Assembly: GCA_043811795.1 (NCBI GenBank)
Contig: JBDRMV010000059.1
Span: 1 to 39,777 of the forward strand
Direction: 5' to 3'
Origin: a bacterium
GTDB lineage: Bacteria > CG03
DNA length: 39,777 bases
Each line of letters opens with the position of its first letter. Position 1 is the stretch's first letter. Positions 15,911 through 39,208 of this stretch are shown in pieces. The position numbers and the translations under genes were made by a program. The notes beneath the pieces are model-generated. The model was not told the origin of the DNA. It worked only from the letters and a program-made list of their open reading frames with translations, and searched no databases.

Positions 15911-15921
15911 TGCGTAAATTT

Positions 15922-16596: not shown

Positions 16597-16610
16597 TATT
16601 CATATTCTCC

Positions 16611-16798: not shown

Positions 16799-16870
16799 GC
16801 AAAACTTCCTCTCATGGCGTCCCGGCGTTTTGCACTCCTGAAGAAAGCAAAACTTTCGTTTTGCACTCCT
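16799..16870 (+). promoter_or_regulatory. tandem CGTTTTGCACTCCT motifs, each preceded by a complementary GCAAAAC (operator pair or alternative hairpins)
   Basis: GCAAAAC at 16799-16805 and 16847-16853. CGTTTTGCACTCCT at 16826-16839 and 16857-16870, with 31-nt spacing. Confidence 0.4.
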
Positions 16871-16882
16871 TATCCCCGTTCT

Positions 16883-16910
16883 TTGTTTTTCCCTGTTTTT
16901 TTGCTATAAA
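16883..16910 (+). promoter_or_regulatory. candidate extended -10 promoter upstream of tmk
   Basis: TTGTTT (16883-16888), 16-nt spacer, TGcTATAAA (16902-16910). The tmk ATG is at 16922. Confidence 0.35.
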
Positions 16911-16921
16911 TTCACATAAAG

Positions 16922-21033: not shown

Positions 21034-21437
21034 GAAATCCTGTGATTGTTCTTGCCGTGATTGCGATAATTTTCGGAGTGTTCAACATCGTTCTGTGGCT
21101 CATCATCGTAAAAGGGAGTAAAGAAACCTCATCTCCGTCGGATGATTTGCAGAATCTGGTGTCCGCCTCCGAAAAACGGCTGACGGATACCCTTACGAGG
21201 TTGCTGACCGCTACAGCCCGGCCGGGTGCTGCCGACGCCAAAAAAATTGCCGCCGAGGTCGCCTCAGCGCTTAAAATCAGCGAGGTGAGGGGAATGAAAG
21301 AAGCCGTTGAGGATATTCCCCATAAACTTGATGAGATTTTACAGGGGTTAAAAAATGTAACGGAGGAACTTGATAAACAGAGAAATTTTATCGAGGCGCT
21401 GGACGGCCACATCGTTGAAAGCGAAAGACGGGGCTGA
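21030..21437 (+). CDS. small membrane-anchored coiled-coil protein
   Basis: N-terminal TM (VIVLAVIAIIFGVFNIVLWLIIV), then a charged helical region. ATGA overlap with the upstream gene. No family recognised. Confidence 0.5.
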   Translation: MRNPVIVLAVIAIIFGVFNIVLWLIIVKGSKETSSPSDDLQNLVSASEKRLTDTLTRLLTATARPGAADAKKIAAEVASALKISEVRGMKEAVEDIPHKLDEILQGLKNVTEELDKQRNFIEALDGHIVESERRG

Positions 21438-21447
21438 GGAGAAAAGT

Positions 21448-21867
21448 ATGACCAAAGCAAAAGTTTTCGGAACGGCAAAAAAAGTCCTTTTCGGGATGAT
21501 TATAACGGTTAATGTGGCGCTTGTCGGGGTTTCCGTCTGGATTTTGGCTTCTTCCACCGGGCGGACCAGCGAACCTCTCATGCCTGGTGAAAAAGCCGCC
21601 CCGGGCGAAGTTTACGGGGAAAAAATCAGGAAAGAAAAAAATGCGGCGTATATTTCGCTGAACACCCGTCCGGCGGGCGCCAAGGTTTTCATAAACGGAT
21701 ATTTTAAGGCAAGAACTCCGGCGGATATAAAAATTGCTTCCGTTACGGAAGTCCCGAGGCAGTACTCAATCAATCTGGTATTGCCCGGTTATCAGAGCTG
21801 GGCAAAAAATGTTGTTCTTACAAGAGGAAAAACAAAAGAGTTTTCGGTAAAACTTGCCAAAAAGTAA
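21448..21867 (+). CDS. membrane-anchored PEGA-domain protein
   Basis: ATG 21448 is preceded by GAGGAGAAAAGT; the ORF-track start at 21370 overlaps the previous gene. TM: LFGMIITVNVALVGVSVWILA. C-terminal YISLNTRPAGAKVFINGYFKARTPADIKI matches the PEGA pattern. Confidence 0.62.
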   Translation: MTKAKVFGTAKKVLFGMIITVNVALVGVSVWILASSTGRTSEPLMPGEKAAPGEVYGEKIRKEKNAAYISLNTRPAGAKVFINGYFKARTPADIKIASVTEVPRQYSINLVLPGYQSWAKNVVLTRGKTKEFSVKLAKK

Positions 21868-21870
21868 TAC

Positions 21871-23844
21871 ATGCGAACGGTTTTCTCCGTCCTTGCCGTT
21901 TCAGGCATTCTGGGTTTTATAGCGCCCTGCAGAGTTTTTTCATACAGCATACTCATTGACGCATCCTGCGCCTCGCCGGAGCAGATTCCGGGCTGCATTA
22001 ATTTCATTGTCGAAACGAGAGACAGCCCTTACAGCATTGTTCTTCCTGACGGGATGGAGCCGTGGGAGGAAAAAATCGTTCACGCTCTCGGTGAGAAATC
22101 GAATTATAGAATTGTTTGTAAGATGAAACCGCAGATATGGCTGAGGGGGGTGGAAACGCTCGGGGTTTCCGACGTCGACGATATTTTTATAAAAACGGGG
22201 CGAAGGTTTTCGAAGGTCTCAGGGGCTCCGCCCGGGGAAATTTTTATCGGACCTCAAACGGTAGACGAAGAAACGGCAGTAAGAATTAAGAGGCACGGCG
22301 TTGAAACGGTTTACTGCGCCGCTGCGGCCGGAAATTCGGGATGCAGCGTGTCCGGATTGAATGTTGCCTCGTGCCGCCGCGTGGATAATCCGGAGTCCGC
22401 CTTCGGGAATATTCTTTACGACAAGACGGATTCATTTGACGAACTGGAAAAATTCCTGAAAGCAAATCCTCCGGTTCCCTTCGATTTTTCAACCCCGTCT
22501 TCCACGGAACCCGTAAAGGGGATTGTTTTGGACAGTGTGAATTTAAAACTGTGGGAACTCTTCGGGAACTCGCGCAGGGCTCTTGATAATTATAAGAACT
22601 CGGGGAGCGCCGAGGGTGAAAAACTCTCCGCCGCTCTTGAGATTGTGTATTCCATCGAAGATGTTTCCAACTGGAAGGACAATGTCAATACCGGCAGGAT
22701 TTTCCACAGCATTTCGGATATCTATAATCTGATAGGGACAAATCCTCCGTATGAATTCGGAAGCATTTCGGATATTTTTTTTGACGACTTGAAAGAACTT
22801 CCGGTGAGTGTTGAGGTCCCCGGGTTTGAATATTCAATCGGCGAAAAAGACGGATTCCTGCATATAGCCGGTTTTTTTGAGACGGCATTTTCAACTTCGA
22901 TCCCCTTGGAAATTTACTGGTGGAATCCGGCAATGATTTTTTCCGCGCGGGAAGGTATTTCCGGCGATGCCCTGAGCAGCCCCGTAAACTTCTGTCTTTT
23001 TCTCACGGACAAATGTTATTTTTATTCTTCATCAAGGGACGGCTGGCAGCGACTCTGGAGCGTGTTCGACGTGGAGAGAAGTTCAAAAACATTTTTAATC
23101 AAAGTTCCCCTCTCGTATTTTCAGCTCGCGAAAAAAAGCAGCGTGTCGTTTCTTATGAAGTTTGACGATTATTTAACGGGGCCTCTTGCGGTTTCGCTCC
23201 CGGAGAGTTACATTTACAAGAAATGGCTTGATATGGTGGGGGATGCCAAAGGCCCGGGGTGGTATGAAATGCCCGTCGATGTGCCGTCGGGTATGGGGGA
23301 CATAATGTCCGTTTCAGCGTGGGAAAATTCAAGCAGGTCCTTTTTCCAGTTTTACTTTGCAGGACCTCTCTGGGACGAAAAATGGTCCGCTGGTTTTGAT
23401 CTTTACATTGATATAAACGGCATAAAAAAAAGAGGGAACGGCGCCTGCAGGCAGGGCCTGAACTGCTGGGTTTCCGAAAATGCGTTCTGGGAGTTCTGTC
23501 TGTCGGTCAGCCCCTCCGGCGCTGTTCTTTCAGAAAGCGGGAAAAAAACAGACGTTTCCCTGAAGTTTGATTCTTCAAAAAGAATTGCGACCGTTGAACT
23601 TGATAAAGATGTCTTCGCCGGCGGCCTGCAGAAGTGCCAGTTTACCTTCTGCAGTTATCTTCTCGATGCGAATGACATTCTGGAAGTTAAAGAAGTCCTG
23701 GACGAGGGGCATCCCGGGGGAGGGAAGCCGTCTCTTAAGTCGCCGAATGTTCTTGACATAATTGCGGGGAGCTCCTTGCAGCAGAAGCAGGTTTTAGGCG
23801 ATTATTTGACGAAGCGCGGCGTTCAGATCCCGGCCCTGCCATAG
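21871..23844 (+). CDS. secreted protein with a C-terminal glucodextranase-C-like beta-sandwich (possible degenerate GH57-like middle region)
   Basis: Signal peptide. The C-terminal part, GDAKGPGWYEMPVDVPSGMGDIMSVSAWENSSRSFFQFYFAGPL...GFDLYIDING, follows the D..GPG.Y.YP...G.fD...f.v pattern of the Glucodextran_C module. No catalytic motif was recognised. Confidence 0.45.
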   Translation: MRTVFSVLAVSGILGFIAPCRVFSYSILIDASCASPEQIPGCINFIVETRDSPYSIVLPDGMEPWEEKIVHALGEKSNYRIVCKMKPQIWLRGVETLGVSDVDDIFIKTGRRFSKVSGAPPGEIFIGPQTVDEETAVRIKRHGVETVYCAAAAGNSGCSVSGLNVASCRRVDNPESAFGNILYDKTDSFDELEKFLKANPPVPFDFSTPSSTEPVKGIVLDSVNLKLWELFGNSRRALDNYKNSGSAEGEKLSAALEIVYSIEDVSNWKDNVNTGRIFHSISDIYNLIGTNPPYEFGSISDIFFDDLKELPVSVEVPGFEYSIGEKDGFLHIAGFFETAFSTSIPLEIYWWNPAMIFSAREGISGDALSSPVNFCLFLTDKCYFYSSSRDGWQRLWSVFDVERSSKTFLIKVPLSYFQLAKKSSVSFLMKFDDYLTGPLAVSLPESYIYKKWLDMVGDAKGPGWYEMPVDVPSGMGDIMSVSAWENSSRSFFQFYFAGPLWDEKWSAGFDLYIDINGIKKRGNGACRQGLNCWVSENAFWEFCLSVSPSGAVLSESGKKTDVSLKFDSSKRIATVELDKDVFAGGLQKCQFTFCSYLLDANDILEVKEVLDEGHPGGGKPSLKSPNVLDIIAGSSLQQKQVLGDYLTKRGVQIPALP

Positions 23845-23882
23845 TTGGGGACAGGTCTTGAAAAGCCCTGTCCCCTTCCTTA
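23844..23882 (+). repeat. GGGGACAGG hairpin repeat, copy 2 (immediately after the stop of the 657-aa gene)
   Basis: GTTGGGGACAGGTCTTGAAAAGCCCTGTCCCCTTCCTTA. Stem 23847-23855 pairs with 23867-23875. Possible terminator or RNA-stability element, but there is no U-run. Confidence 0.8.
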
Positions 23883-23895
23883 AAGGGGGAAAGTT

Positions 23896-23940
23896 ATGAA
23901 AAGATTAAACCTGCCGGTTGCGCTTATTTTTGATGAGTAA
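23896..23940 (+). CDS. possible 14-codon upstream ORF (MKRLNLPVALIFDE*) coupled to the O-antigen-ligase-like gene
   Basis: AAAGGGGGAAAGTT precedes ATG 23896. Its TAA (23938-23940) overlaps the ATG at 23933 of the main gene, which has no Shine-Dalgarno sequence of its own. Confidence 0.2.
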   Translation: MKRLNLPVALIFDE

Positions 23941-25663
23941 AAACAAAAAAAAAGTTAAGGGTGCGGTTCCAGTGAAAGAGGAAAAAATATACAATATTTT
24001 TATTTTTGTTCTTTTTGCGCTTTTCTTTTTGAGCACCGCTTTTCTCATAGACGTAAAGCACTACCGGCTGAAACTCATTGCAATGGAAATCGGCGCGCTG
24101 ACATTTATTGTCGTCTTTTTAATGACCTCTGTTTTCAAAAAAATGGTTCTGTGGAAAAAGAGCCCCCTTGACCTGTGGGTCGCCCTTTTCTTCGGCTATG
24201 TTCTGATTAGATACCTGACGTTTTCGGATAAAAATGTTGCGAGAATGGAAATGGAAAAAAACTTTTTATGCTTTGGATTATTCTTTGGAATCAGCCAGAA
24301 TATCTTAAAGCAGCAGGTTAAGAAAATTCTAAAAATCTTTGCGATATCGGCAATTTTAGTTGCAATATATGGCCTCTGGCAGAATTTCGGGACTCCTGTT
24401 TGGGTGTTCAATGTTCCGCACATTTCCCCGCCTTACGCAACGTTCGGAAACCAGAATTTTTTCGCGGCGTACCTTGTTATAGCGCTCCCCATGGCGTTTC
24501 TTTTTTTAAAAGAAAAGAATGGTTACTTAAAGTTTATCGGCTTTGCCGGAGTGCTCATTTTTGCGCTTGGTTTATATTACGCGGGAAGCCGGGGAGGGAT
24601 TCTGGCGGCATTTGCGGGTGTAATGGTTTTCCTGCTCGCAAAGTACGGGAAGAGAATAAAATATCTGAAAATAATACTGGTTCTGGTTTTATTGTGCGCG
24701 CTTGCGGCGGGATATCTTAAGCGTTCATTCTGGCTGCGCGATACCCATCGTAAACTGATATGGCAGGATACGATAAGAATGGCTCTGAAGAATCCTTTTG
24801 GCGTCGGCCCGGGGGCTTTTGCCTCAAGTTTCCCCGATTATGCTTCGGACAAACTCAAGAAAGTTTATCCCCAGAATAAGTTTATCGTCAATTTTGCCCA
24901 CAACGAATATCTTGAAATTTTTTCGGAACTCGGCTTGCCGGGTTTGTTTCTTTTTCTGATGATTATTGTTACTTTTTTCAGGAAATCAAAAAATCCCTAT
25001 CTTCTGGCATCTGCCGCCGGCATTCTCGTTCACAACATTTTTTCGGTGAACATGCGGTTTATAATTTCGGCGGGCTTCCTTTATTTTATTTTCGCCGTTT
25101 TCAGAGCGGAGAACTCTGAAGACCGCAGAATAAATTTGGAGGGCTCGGCGCCGGTTATTCCGTTTGTTCTGGCTGCGGCATTAACCGTTTTTTTTGTTCC
25201 GCAGATTTTCAAGCCCATAAAAGCCCTTAAAATCACCTCGTCCGAGCCGGATTTTTTCGAGGACGTGAAAGCGGAGGAAATAAAAAAACTTGAAAACAAA
25301 TTGAGCGCAAATCCGAAGGACTACGATACCCTTTACCGTATCGGGTGGTTTTACGCAAAGAAAAAAAACTTCAGGACGGCTGTTGACTATTTTATGAAGG
25401 CGTCGGAAGTCAGGCCGACGCCGGGCCTGTGGAACAACATCGGCAATATTTTCTTTGAAACGGGCGACCGTCCGCGGGCGATTCAGGCTTATAAGAATGC
25501 TCTTTCCATGAATCCGGAACTGATTGACGCCCATTTCAATCTCGGTTACACATATTTTTACGAGGGGCGCCTGGGCGAGTCGGCCGCCTGTTTCAACGAG
25601 GTTCTGAAGCGCGACAAAAATAACGCGAAGGCGATTGTGATGCTCGAGAAGATGAAAGAATAA
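23933..25663 (+). CDS. O-antigen ligase/polymerase-like (Wzy_C) polytopic membrane protein with a C-terminal TPR domain
   Basis: About 10 or more TM segments. Wzy_C-type loop: YYAGSRGG...FAHNEYLEIFSELGLPGL. C-terminal TPRs: YRIGWFYAKKKNFRTAVDYFMKASEVRP, GNIFFETGDRPRAIQAYKNALSMNP, LGYTYFYEGRLGESAACFNEVLKRD. ATG 23933 is preferred over the TTG 23918 ORF-track start. Confidence 0.78.
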   Translation: MSKNKKKVKGAVPVKEEKIYNIFIFVLFALFFLSTAFLIDVKHYRLKLIAMEIGALTFIVVFLMTSVFKKMVLWKKSPLDLWVALFFGYVLIRYLTFSDKNVARMEMEKNFLCFGLFFGISQNILKQQVKKILKIFAISAILVAIYGLWQNFGTPVWVFNVPHISPPYATFGNQNFFAAYLVIALPMAFLFLKEKNGYLKFIGFAGVLIFALGLYYAGSRGGILAAFAGVMVFLLAKYGKRIKYLKIILVLVLLCALAAGYLKRSFWLRDTHRKLIWQDTIRMALKNPFGVGPGAFASSFPDYASDKLKKVYPQNKFIVNFAHNEYLEIFSELGLPGLFLFLMIIVTFFRKSKNPYLLASAAGILVHNIFSVNMRFIISAGFLYFIFAVFRAENSEDRRINLEGSAPVIPFVLAAALTVFFVPQIFKPIKALKITSSEPDFFEDVKAEEIKKLENKLSANPKDYDTLYRIGWFYAKKKNFRTAVDYFMKASEVRPTPGLWNNIGNIFFETGDRPRAIQAYKNALSMNPELIDAHFNLGYTYFYEGRLGESAACFNEVLKRDKNNAKAIVMLEKMKE

Positions 25664-27700: not shown

Positions 27701-30329
27701 AAACCTGCCGCCTGCAAAATATACGCCGGGTTTTGAAGAGGATATTTACCGCAGGTGGCGTGATAAAGGTTTTTTCCATTCGGAAATTTCAGGCAGAGAT
27801 CCTTTTACCATCGTTATTCCTCCGCCGAACATCACCGGTTCCCTGCACATGGGGCACGCCCTCAACAACGTTCTTCAGGACATTCTCATAAGATACAACA
27901 TCCTTTCGGGAAAAGGTGTCCGGTGGGTTCCCGGCACCGACCACGGCGGGATAGCGACGCAGAATGTCGTTGAAAAGGAACTGCGAAAAAGCGGGAAGGG
28001 AAAAAGAGACCTCGGCCGCGAAAAATTCCTCAGGTATATGAACGACTGGAAAGAAAAATACGGCGGCAGAATTTTGGAACAGTTAAAAATTCTGGGCTGC
28101 GCAGCCGACTGGAGCGTTTTACGTTTCACGATGGACGAGGTCTGTTCGCTTGCGGTGAAAGAAGCGTTTGTCCGTCTTTATGAGGAGGGCAAGATTTACA
28201 GGGGCTACCGGCTGATTAATTACTGCATCCGCTGTGAAACGTCCCTGTCGGATATTGAGGTCGAATACAGGGAGGAAAAGGGCAAACTCTGGTTCATAAA
28301 ATACCCGTTTGCGGACGAGCCGGGAAACGGGATAACGGTGGCGACGACAAGACCCGAGACGATGCTGGGCGACACAGCCATAGCCGTAAATCCCGGTGAC
28401 AGGCGTTATAAAAATTGCAGAGGAAAATTTCTGACGCTGCCGGTTGCAGGGAGGAGAATCCCCGTCGTTTACGACGAAAGGGTTGAAATGGATTTCGGCA
28501 CGGGAGCCGTCAAGGTAACGCCCGCCCATGATTTTGCCGATTTTGAAATAGGGCATACTCACGGTCTTGTATCCGTAAAAGTCATTGACGAGAAAGGTCT
28601 TATGACCCGTGAAGCAGGGGACGCTTTCTTCGGTCTGACGAGAAACGAGGCGAGAGAAAAGGTCTGCCGGTTACTGGAAGAGCAGGGGTTTCTGGTCAAA
28701 ACCGAAGAACTGGCTCATTCCGTTTCCGTGTGCTACCGGTGCGGCGAGCCGATTGAGCCGATGCTTTCTCTCCAGTGGTTTCTAAAAATGGAAGCCCTGG
28801 CGGTCCCGGCGATTGATGCCGCCCGAAGGTGTGAAATTAAGTTTTATCCCCGGAGGTGGCAGAAACCGTTTCTCAATTTTTTAGAGAATATTCACGACTG
28901 GTGTCTTTCAAGACAGATTTGGTGGGGACACAGATTGCCTGTCTACTACTGCCGAAGTGAAAAATGCAGCAAAATGAAAAAAGGGATAATTGTCAGCCGG
29001 GAAAAACCGGAGAAATGCCCTTTCTGCGGTTCAACCGGTATTGTTCAGGACGAGGATGTTCTTGACACGTGGTTTTCTTCGGCTCTGTGGCCGTTTGAGG
29101 TTTTCGGCTGGCCGGAAGAAACAGCCGAATTGAAGTATTATTACCCGACTTCCGTTCTGGTTACGGGACACGAGATCCTTTATCTGTGGGTCGCGAGAAT
29201 GGTGATGATGGGTCTCAAATTCGCCGGTAAAATTCCCTTCAAAGACGTTTACATTCACGGCATTGTCAGAGATAAGCGCGGGAAAAAGATGAGTAAGTCG
29301 CTCGGGAACACCATTGACCCCCTTGACGTAACCGGCCGCTACGGCGTGGACAGTTTGAGATATACCGTAACAAAACAGGCGGTTGCCGGACACGACCTTT
29401 TTATTTCCGACGAGAATTTTGTTTCCTCCAGAAATTTTATGAACAAGATATGGAATGCCGCAAACGTTGTGCTGAAGTACGGGCTCGACCGTTCTGTTGA
29501 TTTTAATGCCCTTCAGGGTATGAAATTTCCCGCAGACAGATGGATTCTTTCCGAATTTTCGGCTCTGCTTGCGGAAATTGACGCGGCATTTCTGAGTTAC
29601 GACCTTTCAAAATACGCCCGTCTGATTTATGAATTTTTCTGGAGTAAATTCTGTGACTGGTGGCTTGAGATATTGAAACGGCGGGGGGATGATTCGAGCA
29701 GCGCTCTTGCGTATTATCTGTTCAGGAATGTGCTGGTTGTGATGCATCCCGTTATACCGTTTATAACCGAAAAAATTTACGGACGAGTCAGGTCGCGGAC
29801 GGATCCCGAAAGCATCCTGAATTGCGCCTGGCCGCAACTGCGTTTTGAAGATAAAAACTCGTGCGCGGCGATGTCGGAAATCTTTACGCTCATTCAGGGG
29901 ATAAGGAATATCCGCTCAAGAATGGATGTCCCGCCGTCGAGGCGGGTCCGCGCATGCATTGATACGGATGAGAATTTAAGAAATGTAATTTCTCAGGCGG
30001 AGTTTTTAATACTTCCTCTCGCAGGGGTCAAAGATATTGTTTTTGAATCAAAACGAATCCCGCAGTCGTCAAGTTTTGCTTCTTCCGCGTGGAAGTGTTC
30101 CGTTCCCCTTTCCGGGATTGTCGACATTGCCGCCGAGGCAAAAAAAATAAACGGCGAAATAACGGAAATAAATGTTCAGATTTCAAAACTTGAAAAACTT
30201 CTTGCGAATAAAAAGTTTATTAAAAATGCCGCCCCCGGTGTAGCCCTGCAGAAAAAAGAGTTACTGGAAACATTTACAGCCAAGAAAGAAAATCTTTTTA
30301 TGTTTCTTAAATCGCTTGAGCAGGGATGA
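27690..30329 (+). CDS. valS: valine--tRNA ligase
   Basis: PPPNITGSLHMGHAL, editing-domain TTRPETMLGDTAIAVNP, KMSKSLGN, and a C-terminal coiled coil. ATG 27690 (MEDKNLPPAKY..) is preferred over the ORF-track start at 27633. Confidence 0.93.
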   Translation: MEDKNLPPAKYTPGFEEDIYRRWRDKGFFHSEISGRDPFTIVIPPPNITGSLHMGHALNNVLQDILIRYNILSGKGVRWVPGTDHGGIATQNVVEKELRKSGKGKRDLGREKFLRYMNDWKEKYGGRILEQLKILGCAADWSVLRFTMDEVCSLAVKEAFVRLYEEGKIYRGYRLINYCIRCETSLSDIEVEYREEKGKLWFIKYPFADEPGNGITVATTRPETMLGDTAIAVNPGDRRYKNCRGKFLTLPVAGRRIPVVYDERVEMDFGTGAVKVTPAHDFADFEIGHTHGLVSVKVIDEKGLMTREAGDAFFGLTRNEAREKVCRLLEEQGFLVKTEELAHSVSVCYRCGEPIEPMLSLQWFLKMEALAVPAIDAARRCEIKFYPRRWQKPFLNFLENIHDWCLSRQIWWGHRLPVYYCRSEKCSKMKKGIIVSREKPEKCPFCGSTGIVQDEDVLDTWFSSALWPFEVFGWPEETAELKYYYPTSVLVTGHEILYLWVARMVMMGLKFAGKIPFKDVYIHGIVRDKRGKKMSKSLGNTIDPLDVTGRYGVDSLRYTVTKQAVAGHDLFISDENFVSSRNFMNKIWNAANVVLKYGLDRSVDFNALQGMKFPADRWILSEFSALLAEIDAAFLSYDLSKYARLIYEFFWSKFCDWWLEILKRRGDDSSSALAYYLFRNVLVVMHPVIPFITEKIYGRVRSRTDPESILNCAWPQLRFEDKNSCAAMSEIFTLIQGIRNIRSRMDVPPSRRVRACIDTDENLRNVISQAEFLILPLAGVKDIVFESKRIPQSSSFASSAWKCSVPLSGIVDIAAEAKKINGEITEINVQISKLEKLLANKKFIKNAAPGVALQKKELLETFTAKKENLFMFLKSLEQG

Positions 30330-31744
30330 CGCCGGCGAAATTTTTTTTAGCGGCTGTTTTGCTCCTTGCCTCAGCGGCCTTTGCCGTAACGGAAAAATGG
30401 AACAAAGGAAACTTTGAAATAATTTTCCAGTATCCGCCTCCGGCAAATGATTTTGAATCGTACAGGAGCGAAATTCTCAAAGGAAAACTGGTTTCTTTTT
30501 CAAATGTTCTTGAGGATATTTTAAGCCGAAAAAGTATTCCCCGCCTGCATATTATTGCAGGCCCGCCGGATAAATTCTTTTTTGACGAAAACAGAATGGA
30601 AATACACCTGCCGGTCAGTGACGATTTTAACATAGAAAACGGCATTTCGCTGATAACCCGTATTTTCAGGATTTCAGAGGACTCCTCGCTTTTAAAGGAT
30701 TATTTCGGAACGCCCTGCAGGTTCAGGGACGGTTTTCTTTTCGGCTTCCAGCGGGCAGGGAAGTTCTATCTTTCTTTTGAGGACGGGGAAAAATTAAATC
30801 TGCTGCTGGAAGAGAATGAACCTTTTGATTCCGTCAAGGCGGTATCCGATTCCGTTATTATGTACCGCTCCGGCAATTCGCTGTGGGTTATAGACGTTAA
30901 CAGGAAAAAAAACTTCTGCTATTTTTCCGCACCCGTAGGTTTCGGCGGCGCAACGTCAGGCGGTGTTCCCTTTATGAGTTCCTTCGACTGCGACGGGGAG
31001 AATGTTGCCGTTTGCGTCTGTTCCGGCGAGAAATCGCACATTATCCTCGGAAAAATCGGGCAGAGACCCGACATTTTTTTTCAGGACCTGCCGTACAAAA
31101 TCGAAAAAATTTTTATAAACGGCGAGACAATCGCATTTTTCGCCACGCTCGATTCCGGGAAGAAAGTCGTGGGTATCGGGTCGCAGCGCCTTAAGAAAAT
31201 TTCAAGAATTTATTCGTTCGGGAAGAATGTTCTGCCGCTTCTGAAATACAAGAAAGGCCTGCTTATTTTTTCGCCCGGCGCCAAAAAACTGGAATACATT
31301 GATGCTGACAGGTCTGTGCTTGTAACTTCTAAAATCAGGGTTAAAACCATACCTGCCGTCACGGGCGTAAAATATCTGGCGGCGCTCAGAAACGATTTTC
31401 TGCCCGAGGGTATTAAGAAAGACCTTTTAAGTAAATCATCGGAAAGAGTTCTTTTCCTGAAGGACGTCAATCACCTGAATTTTATTTTAAAAGATATCCG
31501 CAAAAAGGTTTTCTACTCGTTTCACCCGGTTTCGTCGGAGGAGTATTTTCTGCTTGAGGCAAAAAATTATCTCAGAAGTTTTTCCCGATGCGTCGTATCG
31601 GGTTTGCTGACGAAGGAGCAGCTTTTATTCAATAAACAAAACAGGAGGAGAAAAATTTCTCTCGGAATTTCGGGTTTTTTCATTGTTTTATTAACCGTTT
31701 TACAAGGAGCGAAAAATGTCAAGAAGAAAAAGGAAACCGTTTGA
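30326..31744 (+). CDS. hypothetical exported protein with a C-terminal TM anchor
   Basis: Signal peptide (FFLAAVLLLASAAFA), a beta-rich middle, and a C-terminal TM (ISLGISGFFIVLLTVL) plus KKKK. ATGA overlap with valS and a 29-nt overlap with rph. No family recognised. Confidence 0.55.
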   Translation: MTPAKFFLAAVLLLASAAFAVTEKWNKGNFEIIFQYPPPANDFESYRSEILKGKLVSFSNVLEDILSRKSIPRLHIIAGPPDKFFFDENRMEIHLPVSDDFNIENGISLITRIFRISEDSSLLKDYFGTPCRFRDGFLFGFQRAGKFYLSFEDGEKLNLLLEENEPFDSVKAVSDSVIMYRSGNSLWVIDVNRKKNFCYFSAPVGFGGATSGGVPFMSSFDCDGENVAVCVCSGEKSHIILGKIGQRPDIFFQDLPYKIEKIFINGETIAFFATLDSGKKVVGIGSQRLKKISRIYSFGKNVLPLLKYKKGLLIFSPGAKKLEYIDADRSVLVTSKIRVKTIPAVTGVKYLAALRNDFLPEGIKKDLLSKSSERVLFLKDVNHLNFILKDIRKKVFYSFHPVSSEEYFLLEAKNYLRSFSRCVVSGLLTKEQLLFNKQNRRRKISLGISGFFIVLLTVLQGAKNVKKKKETV

Positions 31745-32464: not shown

Positions 32465-33220
32465 CTATACTTTTACTTTCAGAGGGAGTTCGGGGTGACC
32501 GCCGCCGAGTTTTTGCGAGATTTTTTTTATCTTCCTGAAAGATAACAGCGGGTTTTTTACGATTTTCTCTTCGGGTATCCTTAAAATTTTCCAGCCGAGA
32601 TTCCGTAATTCCCTGTCTCGCCGTCGGTCTTTTAACCGCTGCTGTTTTCGGGAGTGCCAGCGGAAACCGTCGCACTCGACGTTCAGCCAGCCCTTCCTGC
32701 AGGGCAGGGCGAAGTCCATCCTGTAGATTTTCCTGTTTTTACGCCTGACCCTGAACTGCGGATAATAAGGGATTTTATTTTTCTTCAGGATGTCCGCCAG
32801 GATGTCTTCTATCGGGGGGATGTCAAAGAGCCGCCTGACGTCGGGGGAGCGGCGCAGTTTATGAAGAGACGTGAAACCGAAAGAAATTCTAACGCCTTTC
32901 CTGTTGGACGGCGCCCGGCGGAGTTTGAGTACCCTGCTCAAAACGAACTGCAGGTAGAGTTGTTCCGCCCGGATATGTTTTTTTTCTTCGGGCAGGAGTT
33001 CTTTTCTTTTTTTCAGCCGCCAGAACTTTACCCGTCCGTACAGTTCAATTTTCCTGCCGCTCTTCCCGAAATTTATCGGCTGGTAAAAGGCGAGGTATTT
33101 CGGCTTTCTCAGCGGCGCGTGTTTGAGAGGCACCCTGTACCATTTTTTGTTCAAAAGAAGTTCCCTGTCGCGTTTGGTTTTCAGGACGCAGACCAGAACC
33201 TCGGGCCGTTCCTTTTTCAT
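32465..33220 (-). CDS. DUF559/Vsr-like endonuclease domain fused to an uncharacterised ~140-aa N-terminal domain
   Basis: C-terminus YRMDFALPCRKGWLNVECDGFRWHS....DRRRDRELRNLGWKILRI fits the DUF559 (PD-(D/E)xK, Vsr-like) pattern. The N-terminus is KKWYRVPLKHAP..PKYLAFYQP..FG. Confidence 0.75.
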   Translation of the reverse strand: MKKERPEVLVCVLKTKRDRELLLNKKWYRVPLKHAPLRKPKYLAFYQPINFGKSGRKIELYGRVKFWRLKKRKELLPEEKKHIRAEQLYLQFVLSRVLKLRRAPSNRKGVRISFGFTSLHKLRRSPDVRRLFDIPPIEDILADILKKNKIPYYPQFRVRRKNRKIYRMDFALPCRKGWLNVECDGFRWHSRKQQRLKDRRRDRELRNLGWKILRIPEEKIVKNPLLSFRKIKKISQKLGGGHPELPLKVKV

Positions 33221-33306: not shown

Positions 33307-34491
33307 TTATTCGGGCAGTTTTGCGTTGGTTTCTTCAAGGAGTTTTTTTATTTCGTCCCTGACCGCCTTTTTTATTTCGTCCCTTTCGAGAAGCCGCTCC
33401 AAAGTTTTTTGAAGTTGTTTCAGAACGCTTTTTTTCGTTTCATTGCGTATGCCCAGAATTATTTCAATTGTTTTTTCCGTCGCAAGTTCCCCCAGCGCCC
33501 AGACGGCGCTCGCTCTCATCCATTTGTTATAACTCAAAAGCATGTTTTTCAGCGTTGCGGTTGCAAGTTTTTCATTGTGGTAATAAAGGGCTTTCGAGGC
33601 GTTTGCGCGAACCCTGTTGTTTGAATCATCCAGGTACGGGATGAGAAGGCTTGTCGCCGCAGTCGGGTCTTTTTCCTCTTGCAGCTCTTTTTCAATCAGT
33701 TCGATTCTTCTCGCTTTCTCCCTTACTATGGGGTCGATGTCCGTTATGACTTCGTGCGTTGATCTTCTGAAAAGCGGCGGCAGAGACGCCTTTAAAGAGC
33801 TGGTATTACTTAGTTCTTCGAGGATGTGCTTCTGATGTGCAAGAAGAGAATCTTCCCTCTTCGCTGCGAGGCGCTGCATGGATTTGTGCATAAAAAGAGC
33901 CGTTAGGAAACCGAGCAGAATGATGATAACGACGGCGCCGAAGACAATCCTGTTTAGTTTTTTCCTGTCTTCATCCTGTTGTCTGCTGAGAAGATTTATC
34001 AGTTCTCTTTTTTCTTTTTCGCTTTCTTTCAGGATTTTTCCTATCATTTCCATTCCGATGCTGTAATTTGCGGAAAACTTTTCCTTCTGGTCCTTAAATT
34101 CCGTAATAAGGCCTTTTACGTTTATTGCATCACCGTTTTTCAGGGCAGAGGTTTCTTTCATTGACATTCTGTCGCAGAGGGTAAGCATATTTTTTATCTG
34201 CTTGTTTTCCGGTTGTAATTTTTCCGCTTTGGCGAGGAACCCGCGCGCTATGCCGTATTTCCCCGCAAGAAAGTTTTCGGAGCCGTATTCCGTCAGAATC
34301 TTGGCGTAAAAGTCAGTTATTTCTTTGTTGTCGGGGGCAAGTTTTACTGCCTGCTCCAGCAGTTCTATGGTTTTTTCCTCATCTCCCCTTATGTAGGAGG
34401 CGCAGGCGGATTTAAAAAAATCAGCCGCTTCCTGCGCGTAGGAATTCTGGAACAGCAATAGAACAAAACAAAAAATAAAAAATTTCTTCAT
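33307..34491 (-). CDS. bitopic protein: signal peptide + TPR-like region, single TM helix, HEAT-like repeats
   Basis: MKKFFIFCFVLLLFQNSYA. TPR-like: CASYIRGDEEKTIELLEQAVKLAPDN, FLAGKYGIARGFLAKAEKLQPEN. TM: IVFGAVVIIILLGFLTALF. HEAT-like: LDDSNNRVRANASKALY, NKWMRASAVWALGELA. ATGA overlap with the upstream gene. Confidence 0.62.
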   Translation of the reverse strand: MKKFFIFCFVLLLFQNSYAQEAADFFKSACASYIRGDEEKTIELLEQAVKLAPDNKEITDFYAKILTEYGSENFLAGKYGIARGFLAKAEKLQPENKQIKNMLTLCDRMSMKETSALKNGDAINVKGLITEFKDQKEKFSANYSIGMEMIGKILKESEKEKRELINLLSRQQDEDRKKLNRIVFGAVVIIILLGFLTALFMHKSMQRLAAKREDSLLAHQKHILEELSNTSSLKASLPPLFRRSTHEVITDIDPIVREKARRIELIEKELQEEKDPTAATSLLIPYLDDSNNRVRANASKALYYHNEKLATATLKNMLLSYNKWMRASAVWALGELATEKTIEIILGIRNETKKSVLKQLQKTLERLLERDEIKKAVRDEIKKLLEETNAKLPE

Positions 34492-35951
34492 TTTTCTCCC
34501 CCCCCTGTTTCTTTGTAATTAATAAACGCTTTTAATCTGCGAAGAAGCCGGCTTATTTTAACATTTCCGGGCTCAATTTTCATTACATCTTCAAGAAACC
34601 CCTCGGCGCTTGCGTATTCACCGTCATTGATTGCCCTGTAAGCGTAACATTGGTTCTGGATGCTTAAGGCGGGTTTGTTTACAGGGTCTATTTCGAGAAT
34701 CCTGCCGACGTCTTCGAGACAATCCTCGAATTTGGATTTCCCAATGTTCTTTCTCGCGGAAGCGAGAATCTCCCTGACTTTTTCCTCCTGTATTTTCTCA
34801 TTGATTTTAATCTCAACTTCAAAAAGCATTTCGCGCTCTTTGCTGTCGGCGGGATTTAGCGCCGCTGCTTTTTTGAATTCGCTTCTTGCAAGCTGGTATT
34901 GACCGTTTAAGAAATATTCTATTGCCGAGTTCACCAGGTTGTCGTACAAACGTTTCGTGTCCTGTAAACTGCTCAGTTCTTCGTCAACTTTTTTTCTGCT
35001 TTCATAATAAAGTTTTGCCTCTTCGCCTCCCGCCGTATCAAAATAAAAGTTTACGCTTAAAAGGTGCTCCGTATCAAGCGTGTGCATAATCAGAGCGTAG
35101 TCAAAAGAGAAAGGGTCCGTTCTGACGCCGAAGCCCGCCGTTATCTCCCTGTAATTTACGCCCGCTCTCAGGTCGAGAAAAGGGGATACATTGAAGGAAA
35201 AGCCCGTCTTCCAGAGATAATTTTTGCAGTGTTCCTCAATAATTATGTCTGCGGCGGGAACAAGACGTCCAGAGAAAAAACCGGCGCTCAGACCGAAAAT
35301 CAGATTGCGCGGATACTTTTCGGAAGAGTCCTTTAATTTGAATTCAGCAGGAACAACGTTTTGAACGACGGCGGAAAAATCAGCGCGCCTGAGATGCGCG
35401 ATCAAACCCATATCCGCTCCTGCAGAACTTGACTTGTAGCCGGCCATGCTGCGGGTTAAAAATTTTGCGTTTAATCCGATGTCGAGGATGTTTCCTGCGG
35501 GATAGGCAAATGAAAAAATAATTGCCTGTTTTCTTTCCTGAAAACTCCCCGCGCTTTCCCTCAAAAGCGTCGTTTTTTCGGCTAAGCCCGATTCGTAACC
35601 CGCAACGCTTATTGCCGCAAACGATTCGCGCGGGAGAGAAAACGCGGGCCCGAATTTGTGGGCCGCCCCAGCGAAAAAATAGTTTCCCCCGTCGAAAAGC
35701 GGCCGGTAAAAGGTGCAGAGTTCGTCTTTTTTCAAACGGCAGACCGCTGCGGGATTTAAGTAAATTCCAGCCCCACGAGCGCTTCGAGCCGAGCCGGCCG
35801 AACCCATCGCGGCGTATGAGGCGTCGCCGGACAATTTGGAAAGCCACCATCCCGGAGCGCCTCCTGTTTCGCCCGCAGGCGAATATGAAAAAAGTTCCGC
35901 GGAAAATAATAAAACCGAAAAACAAAATAATAAAATTTTTTTCGCTGTCAT
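34488..35951 (-). CDS. second PorV-like outer-membrane barrel fused to a longer C-terminal TPR domain
   Basis: Signal peptide. A diverged copy of the N-terminal motif (GDASYAAMGSAGSARSARGAGIYLNPAAV). The beta-rich body ends in FSFDYALIMHTLDTEHLLSVNFYF; compare [23 protein letters not shown] in the 7379-8557 protein. About 180 aa of TPR-like helices follow (AIEYFLNGQYQLARSEFKKAAALNP...). ATGA overlaps on both sides. Confidence 0.62.
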   Translation of the reverse strand: MTAKKILLFCFSVLLFSAELFSYSPAGETGGAPGWWLSKLSGDASYAAMGSAGSARSARGAGIYLNPAAVCRLKKDELCTFYRPLFDGGNYFFAGAAHKFGPAFSLPRESFAAISVAGYESGLAEKTTLLRESAGSFQERKQAIIFSFAYPAGNILDIGLNAKFLTRSMAGYKSSSAGADMGLIAHLRRADFSAVVQNVVPAEFKLKDSSEKYPRNLIFGLSAGFFSGRLVPAADIIIEEHCKNYLWKTGFSFNVSPFLDLRAGVNYREITAGFGVRTDPFSFDYALIMHTLDTEHLLSVNFYFDTAGGEEAKLYYESRKKVDEELSSLQDTKRLYDNLVNSAIEYFLNGQYQLARSEFKKAAALNPADSKEREMLFEVEIKINEKIQEEKVREILASARKNIGKSKFEDCLEDVGRILEIDPVNKPALSIQNQCYAYRAINDGEYASAEGFLEDVMKIEPGNVKISRLLRRLKAFINYKETGGGEK

Positions 35952-38900
35952 TTCAAAACGCCTATGAGACGTTTCCTTTCAAAAATCCCGCCCGAGACGG
36001 GTTTTGCAGTTAACCTGAGAATATAAATTCCGGAGGATACCACCTGCGACTTTCCGTTTTTCCCGTCCCACGGGACGATGTTTGTTATTCCCGACGGGCT
36101 CCCCGAACTTCCGTCCAGACCCGGCGGTATGGAGAATTTTTTAACGAGTTCTCCGGCGGGGCTGAATATCTCGAATTCCATCTGCGCGTCTTCGGTCAAA
36201 ACGTATTCTATTTCCGTCTCTTCGTTCGGCGGATTAAACGGGTTGGGATAATTCCTGACCTCGCTCACCGCGCCCGAAGTTGCGGCGTAACTCAAAAGCC
36301 GGAAATAACTCAGCCCTGCGGTCGTAACCGTAATTTGTTTTTTGTGCTTGTCAATTTGCTGGTTTTCTATGAATTCCCACCTGTTTTCCTGTCCGAGGCG
36401 GAAGACCCTGACTGTTGAGGGGGATATGACAGAAAGACCGGCGTAGGAAAAAATCAGCGTGAAAGTCATTGCCGATGAATCCAGAACCTCTCCCGTGACG
36501 GAGTCCTTCATCTCGATTTTATATGTTTTTCCGTCCAGAAGTTTCATTGCAGGCGACGCCGTCGCTCTTTCGTCCGCGGTTGCCGCCGAATCATAATTTG
36601 AAACTTCTTCCGCATCCAGGCAGGATGAGGATGGCATATCCGCCGAGTAAACCTTCACGGCTTCACCGTCGAAAATGAGTTCCGACCACCTGACGTAAAA
36701 AGAAAATGTCTCGCTGCTGTGCCGGACCTCGCCTGAAGAATCTTCCGCTTCCACCCTCCAGAAGTAGGTCGTAAAGTCATTCAGCGCCGTGATTGTGAAT
36801 GATGCCGTAGAAATCCCGGGTATATCGTAAACAAGCGTTTCAGGATTTGTTGAAGTATAAACATACAGGCGCCAGAAAAGTTCGTCTCCGTAGGCGGTGT
36901 CGGGGTCCCCCGCCGATTCCCATTCGAAGGTAGGGGTAATGGCTGAAACGGTAGAGCCGTCTTCGGGTTCTATCAAAGAAAAATCGAGCGGAGGGCGGTT
37001 TGTGTTCCAGATGCTGAAGAGACCCGAAACCGTGGCCGAGGAAAGAATCCCGTCGGTCGCCACTATTCGTATGGAGTAATTTCCGCCATCGGGGTAACCG
37101 GCTGTGTTAAGAACAAATGAGGTCGTTCCTTCATGCAGGTTGTCCGCGAAACAGAATTTTTCCGCGATGGGTGTCTGGAGCGCTCCATCGGAAGAAATGT
37201 AAAGGTCGAAATAAACCCTGTCGAAAGAATCTCCGTCGGAAAAATTCCATTCGATTCCGGCGGCGCCGGTCTGGATGCTCCCTTCCGTCGGTTTTATGAG
37301 AGAGACGGAAGGCGGGGCGTCGTTATCGTTGATTGTGAAATTGCCCGTCTGGGAACTCACACCCTCAAGACCCCTGTTGTCTGTGGCGGATATTTTTAAT
37401 CTGAAGGTGCTTCCGTTCCCCGCACTCGCGGCATCCCACTCCCACTGGCTTATGTCAACGCTGTTGAATTCTTTTATCATTTCAAAAGAAATTCCGCTGT
37501 TTTTTGACAGAAAAATCTTTACGTCGTGAAAAATGTCCTCGTGATTGGGGTCAGAAACGCTCCACTCGAATGTTATTGATTTTGAATAAACCTCGCTTCC
37601 CGCGGGTTGAGTTATTGTTACGGCGGGCGGCGCATTTGTCAGGAAGGAGACGATGTTTGAAAGTTCGGAAACGTTTCCGGCGCAGTCCTTTGATTCCAGG
37701 GCAAAAAAATAAGTTGTTCCTTCCGCAAGCCCCGATACGACAAAAGTTTCATAATTTCCCGGAGACAGAGGGTCCGCCGGCCCGGGAATCATATTTACCG
37801 CCGGCTCATCAGGTGAAATAAATCCGGAACTCGCAACATAGACCTTGTATTCCGAAATTATATTAAACGTGTAATCCACGGGACTCGTCCACCTGAGTTT
37901 CACCGCCCCGTTTTCGAAAGCCGGGGAGGCGTCCAGATTTTCCGTTTTAGCGGGACTCATCGTGTCGATAAAAATGTTTAGACCGTCCGACCAGCCGGAT
38001 TCACAGTCATAATCGTCCTTTGCAAGCATCCGCCATTTCCACCTGCCGTGGCAGAGGCCCGTAACCGTTATTGTACAGGTGCTGATGCCGTCAATTGTAA
38101 TGTCGGGCGAAGAGAAGTCAGTATTGTCGTCCAATTGAAGTTTGTAGGTGAGCGCGCTGCTGTCCGGGTCGTAGGCGTTGTTCCAGGAAAAGGTGCAGCT
38201 CGTGAGGTTCGTGTAAAATTCGTCCGGCGGATAAATCAATTCGGGCGTCGCCGGAAAAGAATTATTGTAGATTGAAAGCGCCGAAACTTCGGGTGTTTTT
38301 GTGTTGTCCGGTGTTATGAGTTCAATTCTCCATTTTACATATCTTTCGGAGGTGAAGCCTCCGATGTTGCTCTTCCAGATTGACCAGCTTGAGTTGTCGG
38401 GAGAGAAACTGAAAAAATAATTCACGGTTCCGGAATTCAGATTTTGCGAAGAAGAATACGAAAGATATTTTGCGAATTCCGCGCCCGTGTCGTATCCTGC
38501 GGACTCGCCGTAGGCGTGCGTCTCATAGTTTGTCCTGAAAAGAACGTCGGCTGCGCCCGAGAGAACGGAGGAATAAACATCGGGAAAACCTTCCGCGCCA
38601 GCGGAAAAACAGGCGGAAGATAGTTTCAAGTACTGATTTTCAAAGGGAATTGCGGCGCTGAAGAAAGTGAAATTTTCAGGGCAGGCAACGGAAACCCTGT
38701 AGTGCGAGGATGTTGAAACATTGACCGGCGGAATGACCGCCCATGACCAGCCGGCGGAGTCGCTGACGGCGGCCGTGGACAGACAGACACCCTCATCACT
38801 CCACAGATGCACGGTTGTGTTCTTTGAATTTGACAGGAGCGAGTACCGCCCGAGCGCAATAATCTGTCCCGCTTCTTTTACGGAAAATGTCCAGCCCCTC

Positions 38901-39118
38901 TCCGAAGTTCCCGTAACGGTGTAGGTTGAGGTCTCGTTTTCAAGAATTTTTGAAATGCTCCTCTGAAGCCGCAGAACACCGTCCGAAGTATTCCATTCGG
39001 CGTTTGTGCCGGAGGGGTCTTTATAAAAATTATCAAGAAAGTTTTCGCTGACATTCGTTGAGTAGGAATATGTAAGCGCGCCGGCGAAAAACAAAAGACA
39101 GATAATTCTCTTCTTCAT
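35948..39118 (-). CDS. large secreted surface protein: N-terminal DUF4082-like domain, multiple Fn3/Ig-like modules, C-terminal FlgD-Ig/T9SS-type sorting-like domain
   Basis: Signal peptide MKKRIICLLFFAGALTYS. GWTFSVKEAGQIIALGRYSLLSNSKNTTVHLWSDEGVCLSTAAV..GWSWAVIPPVNVSTSSHYRVSV resembles DUF4082. Repeated Fn3-like units (F.W....DPD; TTYFFALESKD). C-terminus: VRNYPNPFNPPNEETEIEYVL...FEIFSPAGELV...WDGKNGKSQVVSSGIYILRL. Confidence 0.85.
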   Translation of the reverse strand: MKKRIICLLFFAGALTYSYSTNVSENFLDNFYKDPSGTNAEWNTSDGVLRLQRSISKILENETSTYTVTGTSERGWTFSVKEAGQIIALGRYSLLSNSKNTTVHLWSDEGVCLSTAAVSDSAGWSWAVIPPVNVSTSSHYRVSVACPENFTFFSAAIPFENQYLKLSSACFSAGAEGFPDVYSSVLSGAADVLFRTNYETHAYGESAGYDTGAEFAKYLSYSSSQNLNSGTVNYFFSFSPDNSSWSIWKSNIGGFTSERYVKWRIELITPDNTKTPEVSALSIYNNSFPATPELIYPPDEFYTNLTSCTFSWNNAYDPDSSALTYKLQLDDNTDFSSPDITIDGISTCTITVTGLCHGRWKWRMLAKDDYDCESGWSDGLNIFIDTMSPAKTENLDASPAFENGAVKLRWTSPVDYTFNIISEYKVYVASSGFISPDEPAVNMIPGPADPLSPGNYETFVVSGLAEGTTYFFALESKDCAGNVSELSNIVSFLTNAPPAVTITQPAGSEVYSKSITFEWSVSDPNHEDIFHDVKIFLSKNSGISFEMIKEFNSVDISQWEWDAASAGNGSTFRLKISATDNRGLEGVSSQTGNFTINDNDAPPSVSLIKPTEGSIQTGAAGIEWNFSDGDSFDRVYFDLYISSDGALQTPIAEKFCFADNLHEGTTSFVLNTAGYPDGGNYSIRIVATDGILSSATVSGLFSIWNTNRPPLDFSLIEPEDGSTVSAITPTFEWESAGDPDTAYGDELFWRLYVYTSTNPETLVYDIPGISTASFTITALNDFTTYFWRVEAEDSSGEVRHSSETFSFYVRWSELIFDGEAVKVYSADMPSSSCLDAEEVSNYDSAATADERATASPAMKLLDGKTYKIEMKDSVTGEVLDSSAMTFTLIFSYAGLSVISPSTVRVFRLGQENRWEFIENQQIDKHKKQITVTTAGLSYFRLLSYAATSGAVSEVRNYPNPFNPPNEETEIEYVLTEDAQMEFEIFSPAGELVKKFSIPPGLDGSSGSPSGITNIVPWDGKNGKSQVVSSGIYILRLTAKPVSGGIFERKRLIGVLK
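35951..36259 (-). other. C-terminal sorting-like domain of the 1056-aa protein
   Basis: YPNPFNP...I.Y.L......EIFS.AGELV......WDGKN..G..V.SGIYI motif order, matching the C-terminus of the 2435-aa protein. Confidence 0.6.
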
Positions 39119-39208
39119 GTTCCTGCTGACATCTTACAAATTTATGGGAACTTTTCACAGGTTTTTTGCGGATGTTGTGTTTCGTTTGGAAAAATGTTAG
39201 ATTCTTTT

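Follow-up and report, generated by a model that had tools for sequence, protein, structure and literature searches.

In type IX secretion systems (T9SS), PorV acts as a general shuttle and is not encoded beside its substrates, PorZ stays on PorQ through a type-A-like C-terminal sorting domain (CTD), and type B substrates stay on PorP/SprF carriers. We know of no tetratricopeptide repeat (TPR) tail on PorV or PorQ and of no inner-membrane partner dedicated to either. Work from 2025 found the T9SS carrier barrel SprF to be functionally wired to an internal machine through its periplasmic tail (PMC12635249), and in Treponema pallidum three of the five FadL-like orthologues carry periplasmic C-terminal helical bundles that contain TPRs, a feature reported as unique among Pfam FadL members (PMC8407342). 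The present analysis concerns three adjacent minus-strand genes on contig JBDRMV010000059.1 (assembly GCA_043811795.1), of which positions 1 to 39,777 of the forward strand, 39,777 nt in all, were analysed and are termed the window. The genes, referred to together as the trio, encode a surface protein ending in a CTD (the cargo), an outer-membrane barrel with a TPR tail, and a bitopic inner-membrane protein (the adaptor). At a little better than an even chance, we read the trio as a type-IX-style cargo/carrier pair coupled to an inner-membrane adaptor, through which information would pass between the cell surface and the cytoplasm. The three open reading frames (ORFs) and their two ATGA junctions (gaaATGAcag at 35951-35948 and aaaATGAaga at 34491-34488) lie where the first-pass annotation of this DNA had placed them. 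The features of the trio are as follows.

35948 to 39118, minus strand: cargo, 1056 aa, with signal peptide (~aa 1-20), DUF4082 (aa 70-150), an Ig-like stalk of SusE/fn3/Big_7 domains and a CTD, by Pfam scan
35951 to 36265, minus strand: cargo CTD, ~aa 952-1056, with the motifs YPNPFNP ... WDGKN ... SGIYI ... IGVLK (motif at 36250)
35948 to 35951, minus strand: ATGA overlap of cargo stop and barrel start; a 4-bp overlap is also present in 15 of 23 related cargo/barrel pairs
34488 to 35951, minus strand: barrel protein, 487 aa
35034 to 35870, minus strand: PorV/PorQ-like beta-barrel domain, aa 28-306, preceded by a signal peptide at 35871-35951
34491 to 35033, minus strand: predicted periplasmic tail of the barrel protein, aa 307-487, a helix (307-348) and then TPR-like helix pairs up to aa 481 in the AlphaFold2 (AF2) model
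34488 to 34491, minus strand: ATGA overlap of barrel stop and adaptor start; four related loci likewise have an overlap here, whereas the rest have 3-48 bp between the two genes
33307 to 34491, minus strand: adaptor, 394 aa
33949 to 34431, minus strand: predicted periplasmic part of the adaptor, aa 21-181, TPR helices and then a stalk helix, preceded by a signal peptide at 34432-34491
33886 to 33948, minus strand: adaptor transmembrane (TM) helix, ~aa 182-202, Kyte-Doolittle 19-residue maximum 2.96
33310 to 33885, minus strand: predicted cytoplasmic half of the adaptor; in the AF2 model, a HEAT-like solenoid at aa 254-391 preceded by a linker of low pLDDT (aa 203-253)

The arrangement resembles SprF-type T9SS carrier/substrate pairs in that a large CTD surface-protein gene stands directly before its own barrel gene, and in that the barrel has a periplasmic C-terminal tail linking to an internal structure, a contact that we infer for the trio (PMC12635249, PMC12618676, PMC9143113). 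Unlike the type B/PorP-SprF pairs, however, the trio has a type-A-like CTD (TIGR04183) and a PorV/PorQ-like barrel that gives no PorP_SprF match. Where SprF has a short Cys-X-Cys tail, the barrel of the trio carries a 180-aa TPR domain; where the partner of SprF is the lipoprotein GldK/PorK, the partner proposed here is a bitopic inner-membrane HEAT protein; and the host is Elusimicrobia-like, whereas the SprF-type system belongs to Bacteroidota. With the PorV/PorQ-PorZ proteins of the T9SS attachment complex the trio shares a ~14-stranded FadL-like barrel and cargo CTDs that match the C-terminal regions of PorZ and PorU, but the 487-aa protein differs from PorV and PorQ in its TPR tail and in scoring under the family cut-off (51.7 versus 90). 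The T. pallidum FadL-like outer-membrane proteins are likewise built of a 14-stranded FadL-like barrel followed by a periplasmic alpha-helical TPR extension (PMC8407342), yet they are reported without CTD cargo partners or an inner-membrane adaptor, both of which are present in the trio. The coupling proposed here also recalls FecA-FecR-FecI cell-surface signalling and the inside-out control of an adhesin by LapD-LapG-LapA, in which a surface or outer-membrane component is linked across the periplasm to an inner-membrane protein that has one membrane pass and a cytoplasmic output or input domain, but the components are not homologous to those of the trio. Domain scans found in the trio neither a TonB-dependent transducer nor a FecR anti-sigma or ECF sigma factor, and no GGDEF/EAL or LapG-type protease domain either; FecA/FecR/FecI domains were also not found in its immediate neighbours.

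The argument for a functional unit begins with gene order. All three trio proteins are products of real genes, each with full-length homologues. In a word-indexed search the 487-aa and 394-aa families proved small and came from metagenome-assembled genomes (MAGs) of Elusimicrobia, in which the trio recurs at 45-51% identity; contigs of matching length in the two sets of matches were a first hint of linkage. Among the surveyed loci, which are identified by L numbers and were scored with hidden Markov models of the CTD, the adaptor and the barrel domain, the same trio is found in L001/L002 (HGW-Elusimicrobia-2), L004, L006, L007 and L008, with DUF4082/CTD proteins of 1051-1060 aa, barrel-TPR proteins of 485-488 aa and TPR-TM-HEAT proteins of 388-403 aa, and with flanks that vary by locus. 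An orthologue of the cargo, 1051-1065 aa long, stands at the corresponding place in L001, L004, L006, L007, L008, L014, L015, L017, L027 and L068. Another 44 loci came from scanning metagenomes with the adaptor profile; many profile matches (L037-L065) have no TM helix and were left out of the adaptor family as generic soluble HEAT proteins of ~320-1140 aa.

The co-occurrence of the three families, on which the first-pass annotation had staked its proposal, was borne out by this survey. A CTD-ending gene lies directly upstream, on the same strand, of each of the 23 distinct barrel genes (with a 4-bp overlap in 15), so that in all 23 the carrier gene stands beside the substrate gene, which is the operational definition of a dedicated carrier/substrate pair across genomes. 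The adaptor gene lies downstream of the barrel gene in 13 of the 13 distinct loci with enough flank, adjoining it directly in 12; in the remaining one (L035/L036) two small ORFs stand between. The order also holds in clades whose proteins are only ~25% identical to those of the window, namely L011/L020 (cargo 2310 to >2500 aa, barrel-TPR 780 aa, adaptor 441 aa), L031/L032 (cargo 621 aa, barrel 467 aa, adaptor 419 aa), L035 and L068, and the adaptor family was aligned by hhalign to the homologues in L011/L020 and in L068 with probabilities of 99.7 and 99.8, respectively. That the three genes have no functional link and are neighbours by descent in one narrow clade is a reading to which we give hardly any credence. 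The closest family is admittedly small, a genome pattern scan with a narrower barrel alignment having returned six loci and matched 4 of 185,579 species genomes, but flanks, cargo size (621 to >2500 aa) and adaptor domain content vary while the gene order persists. Since the order is kept at ~25% identity, chance adjacency or recent common descent is not a credible cause of the trio, as judged from the sequences compared.

The first-pass annotation had further taken the two ATGA overlaps to imply stoichiometric co-expression, a claim that we rejected: overlaps of 4 bp occur at 7 of the 24 same-strand junctions of the window, are a habit of this genome, and are therefore no proof of stoichiometric expression. 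The overlaps do indicate co-transcription and translational coupling, and one operon is the best explanation of the three genes. With a divergent gene on the upstream side of the cargo, the trio has an upstream region to itself, which is likely to contain its promoter, although the promoter scan gave no clear promoter and no convincing sigma-70 match upstream of the cargo gene.

39119 to 39195, no strand: intergenic stretch separating the cargo gene from a divergent plus-strand ORF that is cut by the window end; the neighbour is on the opposite strand

The divergent neighbour is also present in L014, a locus 92% identical to that of the window. Six nucleotides before the adaptor start, within the last barrel codons, stands a purine run of eight G residues (34498-34505, minus strand; seven in L014), which is likely to be the ribosome-binding site of the adaptor gene. 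A terminator-like hairpin with a T-run was noted at 35987-36001 (minus strand) in the last cargo codons, ~35 nt before the barrel start; terminator-like sites in the window as a whole are at chance level (13 versus 12.3 expected). Horizontal transfer of the cassette was considered and rejected, the composition giving no sign of it (GC 0.46-0.50, as in the rest of the window).

The barrel that the first-pass annotation had proposed for the 487-aa protein is also predicted by AF2. The monomer model, made from a 21-sequence alignment, has a pLDDT of 81.6 and ~14 strands over aa 76-304, and its top matches in the Protein Data Bank (PDB) are PorV chains: Foldseek ranked PorV 6h3i_F first (E 3.3e-9, TM 0.62) and PorV 8gl6_F second, followed by FadL and TodX. 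The second of these is PorV in a translocon complex, bound to a substrate CTD. The predicted fold is thus that of a FadL-like barrel of ~14 strands with PorV as its closest relative. A profile search of PDB sequences agreed in giving PorV as the only clear natural outer-membrane-protein match (E 5e-4); NspA, at E 0.28 in the same search, was not significant. By Pfam scan the protein has a TPR extension and matches neither PF03687 nor PF03349.

A second cargo/barrel pair in the window, termed cassette A, provides a close comparison.

7379 to 15861, minus strand: cassette A, a 2435-aa LVIVD/fn3 protein with the same CTD, an ATGA overlap, and a 392-aa PorV/PorQ-family barrel with a single TPR

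The 2435-aa protein carries 14 LVIVD repeats besides choice-of-anchor B, lamin-tail and fn3 domains, and its C-terminal domain of the form YPNPF...WDG/WN...SG[IV]YI is, as had been noticed on first reading, common to it and the 1056-aa cargo by alignment and motif scan. The cassette A barrel passes the PorV/PorQ family model (NCBIfam NF033709, PorV_fam, curated cut-off 90 bits) with 169.1 bits, and it also passes PF03687 (UPF0164), the model of the T. pallidum FadL-like family (22.9 versus a cut-off of 21.4). The 487-aa barrel is its paralogue, alignable by BLASTP from the N-terminal motif through the first TPR (E 5e-15, 25% identity). The likeness of the barrel-terminal strands was likewise recovered, FSFDYALIMH-TLDTEHLLSVNFYF aligning with a 23-residue stretch of cassette A; in the AF2 model this segment forms the last two barrel strands (E281-289 and E294-304). 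Neither window barrel matches PF11751 (PorP/SprF) at E <= 0.01, and no adaptor or inner-membrane partner gene follows the cassette A barrel.

These comparisons bear on the idea that the 487-aa protein takes up hydrophobic compounds as a FadL-type channel, akin to the T. pallidum FadL-like proteins with TPR extensions, and shares no more than a transcript with a surface protein. FadL and TodX do match the model strongly in structure, the T. pallidum barrels have periplasmic TPR bundles (PMC8407342), and the cassette A barrel passes the UPF0164 cut-off. We nevertheless regard such a channel as highly improbable, as PorV ranks above FadL by fold and by sequence, the 487-aa protein has no Toluene_X/FadL Pfam match, and 23 of 23 barrels pair with CTD cargos, with a CTD type that appears to track the barrel type.

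The ~180-aa TPR or helical tail described in the first-pass annotation was found at aa 307-487 by both Pfam and AF2. It matches TPR_2 and TPR_19, the former at a borderline 26.6 against a cut-off of 27, and consensus-TPR entries of the PDB down to E 3e-17. Outer-membrane barrels with an even number of strands have both termini on the periplasmic side; since the tail follows the last strand of a ~14-stranded barrel, it must, on the predicted structure, be periplasmic. The fusion of barrel and TPR is not confined to these loci. An exhaustive profile search of 1.84 billion representatives returned 746 matches at E<1e-30; among the best 150 of these, 148 were new proteins and 140 had a complete barrel, of which 123 carry a TPR-like C-terminal tail of at least 100 aa, a proportion biased upward because the query profile included the tail. 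By sequence the barrel-TPR fusion is clearly a large family, with hundreds of clusters at 50% identity, and our literature search found no paper that describes it.

The 394-aa adaptor has the bitopic TPR/HEAT architecture that had been proposed for it: a signal-like N-terminus, TPRs at aa 26-105 among TPR helices that span aa 21-119, one strong hydrophobic segment (aa 182-200) and a HEAT_2 domain at aa 282-359 (38.9 bits versus a cut-off of 27.7). The hydrophobic segment, the only strong one, sits in a long helix in the AF2 model. All full-length family members keep the architecture of the periplasmic part, a TM helix is found at the equivalent position in every member, and conservation within the family is highest in the cytoplasmic half, the invariant columns being clustered at aa 237-335. 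In the predicted topology the TPR of the adaptor is periplasmic and its HEAT domain cytoplasmic, with or without N-terminal cleavage, and the receiver domain that lies between the TM helix and HEAT in the L068 homologue (see below) gives independent support for a cytoplasmic C-terminal half. The prediction thus places both TPR regions of the trio in one compartment, the periplasm, the one after the last barrel strand and the other between signal peptide and TM helix; this was the arrangement on which the first-pass proposal depended. Foldseek and PDB sequence searches with the adaptor returned designed alphaRep/HEAT, TPR and armadillo proteins only and gave no functional lead.

Several cysteines were noted in these proteins. 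The 487-aa protein has a conserved Cys71 in its N-terminal region and a conserved Cys435 in its tail, and Cys106 of the adaptor (window 34174-34176), periplasmic in the prediction, is invariant in the 390-aa clade (motif ML.LC) and absent from the 440-aa clade. A disulfide link is conceivable in view of the SprF-GldK disulfide precedent.

On the side of the cargo, the isolated CTD gives a borderline match to the T9SS type A sorting domain (TIGR04183, grouped with PF18962 and the FlgD_ig clan), with 23.8 bits against a cut-off of 23, and a scan of the whole protein gave only weaker PorU/PorZ C-terminal matches and FlgD_ig at 18.1 bits. Of the 18 related CTDs, 17 match TIGR04183 (best E 1.6e-7) and most also match the C-terminal regions of the PorU and PorZ models, and no match of the window CTD to TIGR04131 (type B) was found. 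The first-pass annotation had taken the trio for a module distinct from the canonical T9SS core, which appears doubtful and unsupported in view of these matches: as the CTDs are type-A-like, passage of the cargo through the outer membrane probably still needs the T9SS translocon, and independence from the core is not accepted here. The gene order of a dedicated carrier suggests that the cargo CTD may be retained on the barrel, by analogy with PorZ on PorQ, in place of the type A route in which the PorU sortase cuts the CTD off and the protein is released or joined to anionic LPS. With its DUF4082 head carried by a stalk of Ig/fn3 domains, the cargo has the look of an adhesin; a PDB search with it gave one fn3 match only.

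Pointers to what the module might do come from loci in which the cargo/barrel pair is kept and the downstream partner differs.

L068 (GCA_051745145.1): DUF4082 cargo of 1065 aa; barrel-TPR protein of 487 aa; 612-aa adaptor homologue with a receiver domain (11479-13317)
L011, L020, L022, L035 (the 440-460-aa adaptor clade): giant Ig cargos; barrel-TPR proteins of 762-782 aa; HEAT adaptor, then a DnaJ-STAS protein
L009: cargo of 4608 aa; barrel-TPR protein of 528 aa; a protein with signal peptide, FliF_C, TM helix, FliG_M and FliG_C, then a coiled-coil protein and a histidine kinase (11738-15827)
L012: cargo of 665 aa; barrel-TPR protein of 647 aa; a TM-sCache-TM-HAMP-SpoIIE phosphatase (PP2C), then an RsbW-like kinase and a STAS protein (4271-6881)
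L018, L019 (~6700-17900): cargo of 1009-1059 aa; barrel with a C-terminal FlgD_ig domain instead of TPR; a secreted protein of ~1050 aa next
L032 (309-11260), two tandem pairs: 1747-aa cargo with 311-aa barrel; 621-aa cargo with type-A-like CTD, PorV-like barrel-TPR protein and HEAT adaptor

In L068 a full Response_reg domain (101.7 bits) is inserted between the TM helix and HEAT of the adaptor homologue, which suggests that the C-terminal half of the adaptor takes part in phospho-signalling. Taken over all these loci, the downstream partner appears to be modular and signalling-flavoured (HEAT, REC-HEAT, FliF/FliG-like, sCache-HAMP-PP2C). The L068 locus contains another cargo/barrel pair besides, made up of a Por_Secre_tail protein of 468 aa and, after it, a PorV-like barrel of 308 aa, with two histidine kinases upstream. 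The DnaJ-STAS fusion of L011, L020, L022 and L035 consists of a J domain, a zinc finger, DnaJ_C and STAS, and most of these loci have a further STAS-like protein and GrpE as well, an unusual combination of co-chaperone and partner-switching components. The sources of L018/L019 include a Candidatus Eisenbacteria MAG.

The tandem pairs of L032 offer a view of how CTD and carrier match. Its 311-aa barrel passes the PorP/SprF model PF11751 (24.5 versus 22.3), and one of the 18 scanned CTDs matches the type B model TIGR04131; the scan output gives counts and not member names, and by inference the single type B CTD is most likely that of the 1747-aa L032 cargo beside the PorP/SprF-like barrel. If that assignment is right, CTD type would track barrel type.

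Tail length is informative in the same way. The tail-less or short-tailed barrels, in L032 (311 aa), L068 (308 aa) and cassette A (392 aa), have no partner gene, and downstream of every long-tailed barrel comes a gene on the same strand whose product is exported or spans the membrane; tail length therefore tracks the presence of a partner. This correlation counts against the thought that the TPR tail serves the cargo, as a periplasmic receptor or chaperone for the CTD or its extreme C-terminal peptide (...IGVLK) before export, with the adaptor acting separately, for instance as an assembly or regulatory factor. Several observations would suit such a role: TPR tails occur in most barrel relatives (123 of 140 among the best matches), including cassette A although it has no adaptor gene, the closest natural structural matches of the tail are the TPR domains of FKBP38/51/52, which clamp C-terminal peptides, and the C-terminal residues of the cargo are conserved. 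Yet in all 13 loci the adaptor gene comes after that of the barrel, immediately so in 12, and the tail-less barrels of L032 and L068 still pair with CTD cargos, so that a tail is not needed for pairing; we consider a cargo-serving tail unlikely.

The partners in L009 and L019 raise instead the question of mechanical coupling, in which tail and adaptor would anchor or move the surface adhesin or resist force, as SprB-SprF do on the GldK track, and HEAT or FliG-like domains would engage a motor or scaffold. SprF's periplasmic C-tail is tethered to a moving internal track (PMC12635249), the L009 partner has the rotor-type domains FliF_C, FliG_M and FliG_C, and the cargo of the window is adhesin-like with its DUF4082 head and Ig/fn3 stalk. 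In L019 the ~1050-aa protein is a TPR protein, followed by ExbB-ExbD-ExbD-TonB (Pfam) and another FlgD_ig protein; the ORFs of L018 match this cluster by size and TM pattern only. A FliG identity of the adaptor HEAT domain was considered and dropped, hhalign against the FliG-like partner of L009 giving a probability of 0.5% and Foldseek no FliG among its matches. Moreover, no motor genes stand beside the trio in the window or the 390-aa clade, and REC, STAS and PP2C partners favour signalling, which leaves mechanical coupling with a rather small probability in our judgement.

The mechanism that we favour, a cargo/carrier pair coupled to the inner membrane for the passage of information, would run as follows. 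The cargo would be exported by Sec and reach the cell surface via its type-A-like CTD, by which it would be held on its own carrier, the 487-aa PorV/PorQ-like barrel. The 180-aa helical/TPR tail of the barrel would hang in the periplasm and meet the periplasmic TPR domain of the 394-aa adaptor, whose HEAT solenoid would serve in the cytoplasm as a docking platform for signalling proteins. Information could thus be passed between the surface protein and the cytoplasm; the receiver domain of the L068 homologue would be as compatible with control from the inside out as with sensing from the outside in.

Several findings weigh against this reading. The 487-aa protein scores 51.7 bits on NF033709 (aa 40-302, E 9.7e-14), under the cut-off of 90, and the cargo CTD barely reaches that of TIGR04183 (23.8 versus 23), and then only if scanned alone. 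Domain scans found no T9SS core gene (the SprA/Sov translocon, the PorK/L/M/N energy chain, PorU) within the 39.8-kb window, and for the HEAT domain all matches are to repeat proteins that are generic or designed. A single organism is the source of the FliG-like variant, and likewise of the PP2C variant, and no STAS, REC or kinase gene lies beside the trio in the clade of the window, so that the case for signalling rests on its relatives. Our literature searches returned nothing on T9SS in Elusimicrobia/Elusimicrobiota and nothing relevant on PorV-like proteins with TPRs or on DUF4082.

The surroundings of the trio contain further genes of interest. Downstream of the trio, on the same strand and 86 bp away, lies a DUF559/REase_MTES_1575 nuclease-like gene (251 aa, 32465-33220, minus strand). 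Of the other trio loci only L014, the one with 92% identity, has this gene, and its product weakly matches two anti-phage models, Hhe and ProA, in their C-terminal regions. Three plus-strand ORFs, at 30326-31744 (472 aa), 6438-7271 (277 aa) and 152-844 (230 aa), belong to no Pfam family; the first has a signal peptide and a C-terminal hydrophobic segment, and it shares a 4-bp overlap with the valyl-tRNA synthetase gene. An envelope-related group on the plus strand (21370-25663) encodes a protein with a PEGA domain, another of 657 aa whose C-terminal module is SLH-like and of the glucodextranase type, and a fusion of O-antigen ligase (Wzy_C) with TPR.

Overall, the locus suggests that the SprF principle, a carrier wired through its periplasmic tail, exists outside Bacteroidota in a different and more modular form. 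As a tentative proposal, to which we give somewhat less than even credence, PorV/PorQ-like carriers with long TPR tails may constitute a widespread and undescribed class of trans-envelope couplers in uncultivated phyla, each holding its own CTD protein and plugging by its tail into interchangeable inner-membrane partners; they would form a signalling route, or a means of inside-out control, that uses type IX parts and has no relation to TonB-dependent transducers. Provided that the contacts are real, they would give surface proteins in phyla without cultured models a direct line of communication with the cytoplasm, or of control by it, would lend a role to an unannotated barrel-TPR family with hundreds of sequence clusters, and would provide small three-gene systems in which the coupling of T9SS carriers across the envelope could be studied.

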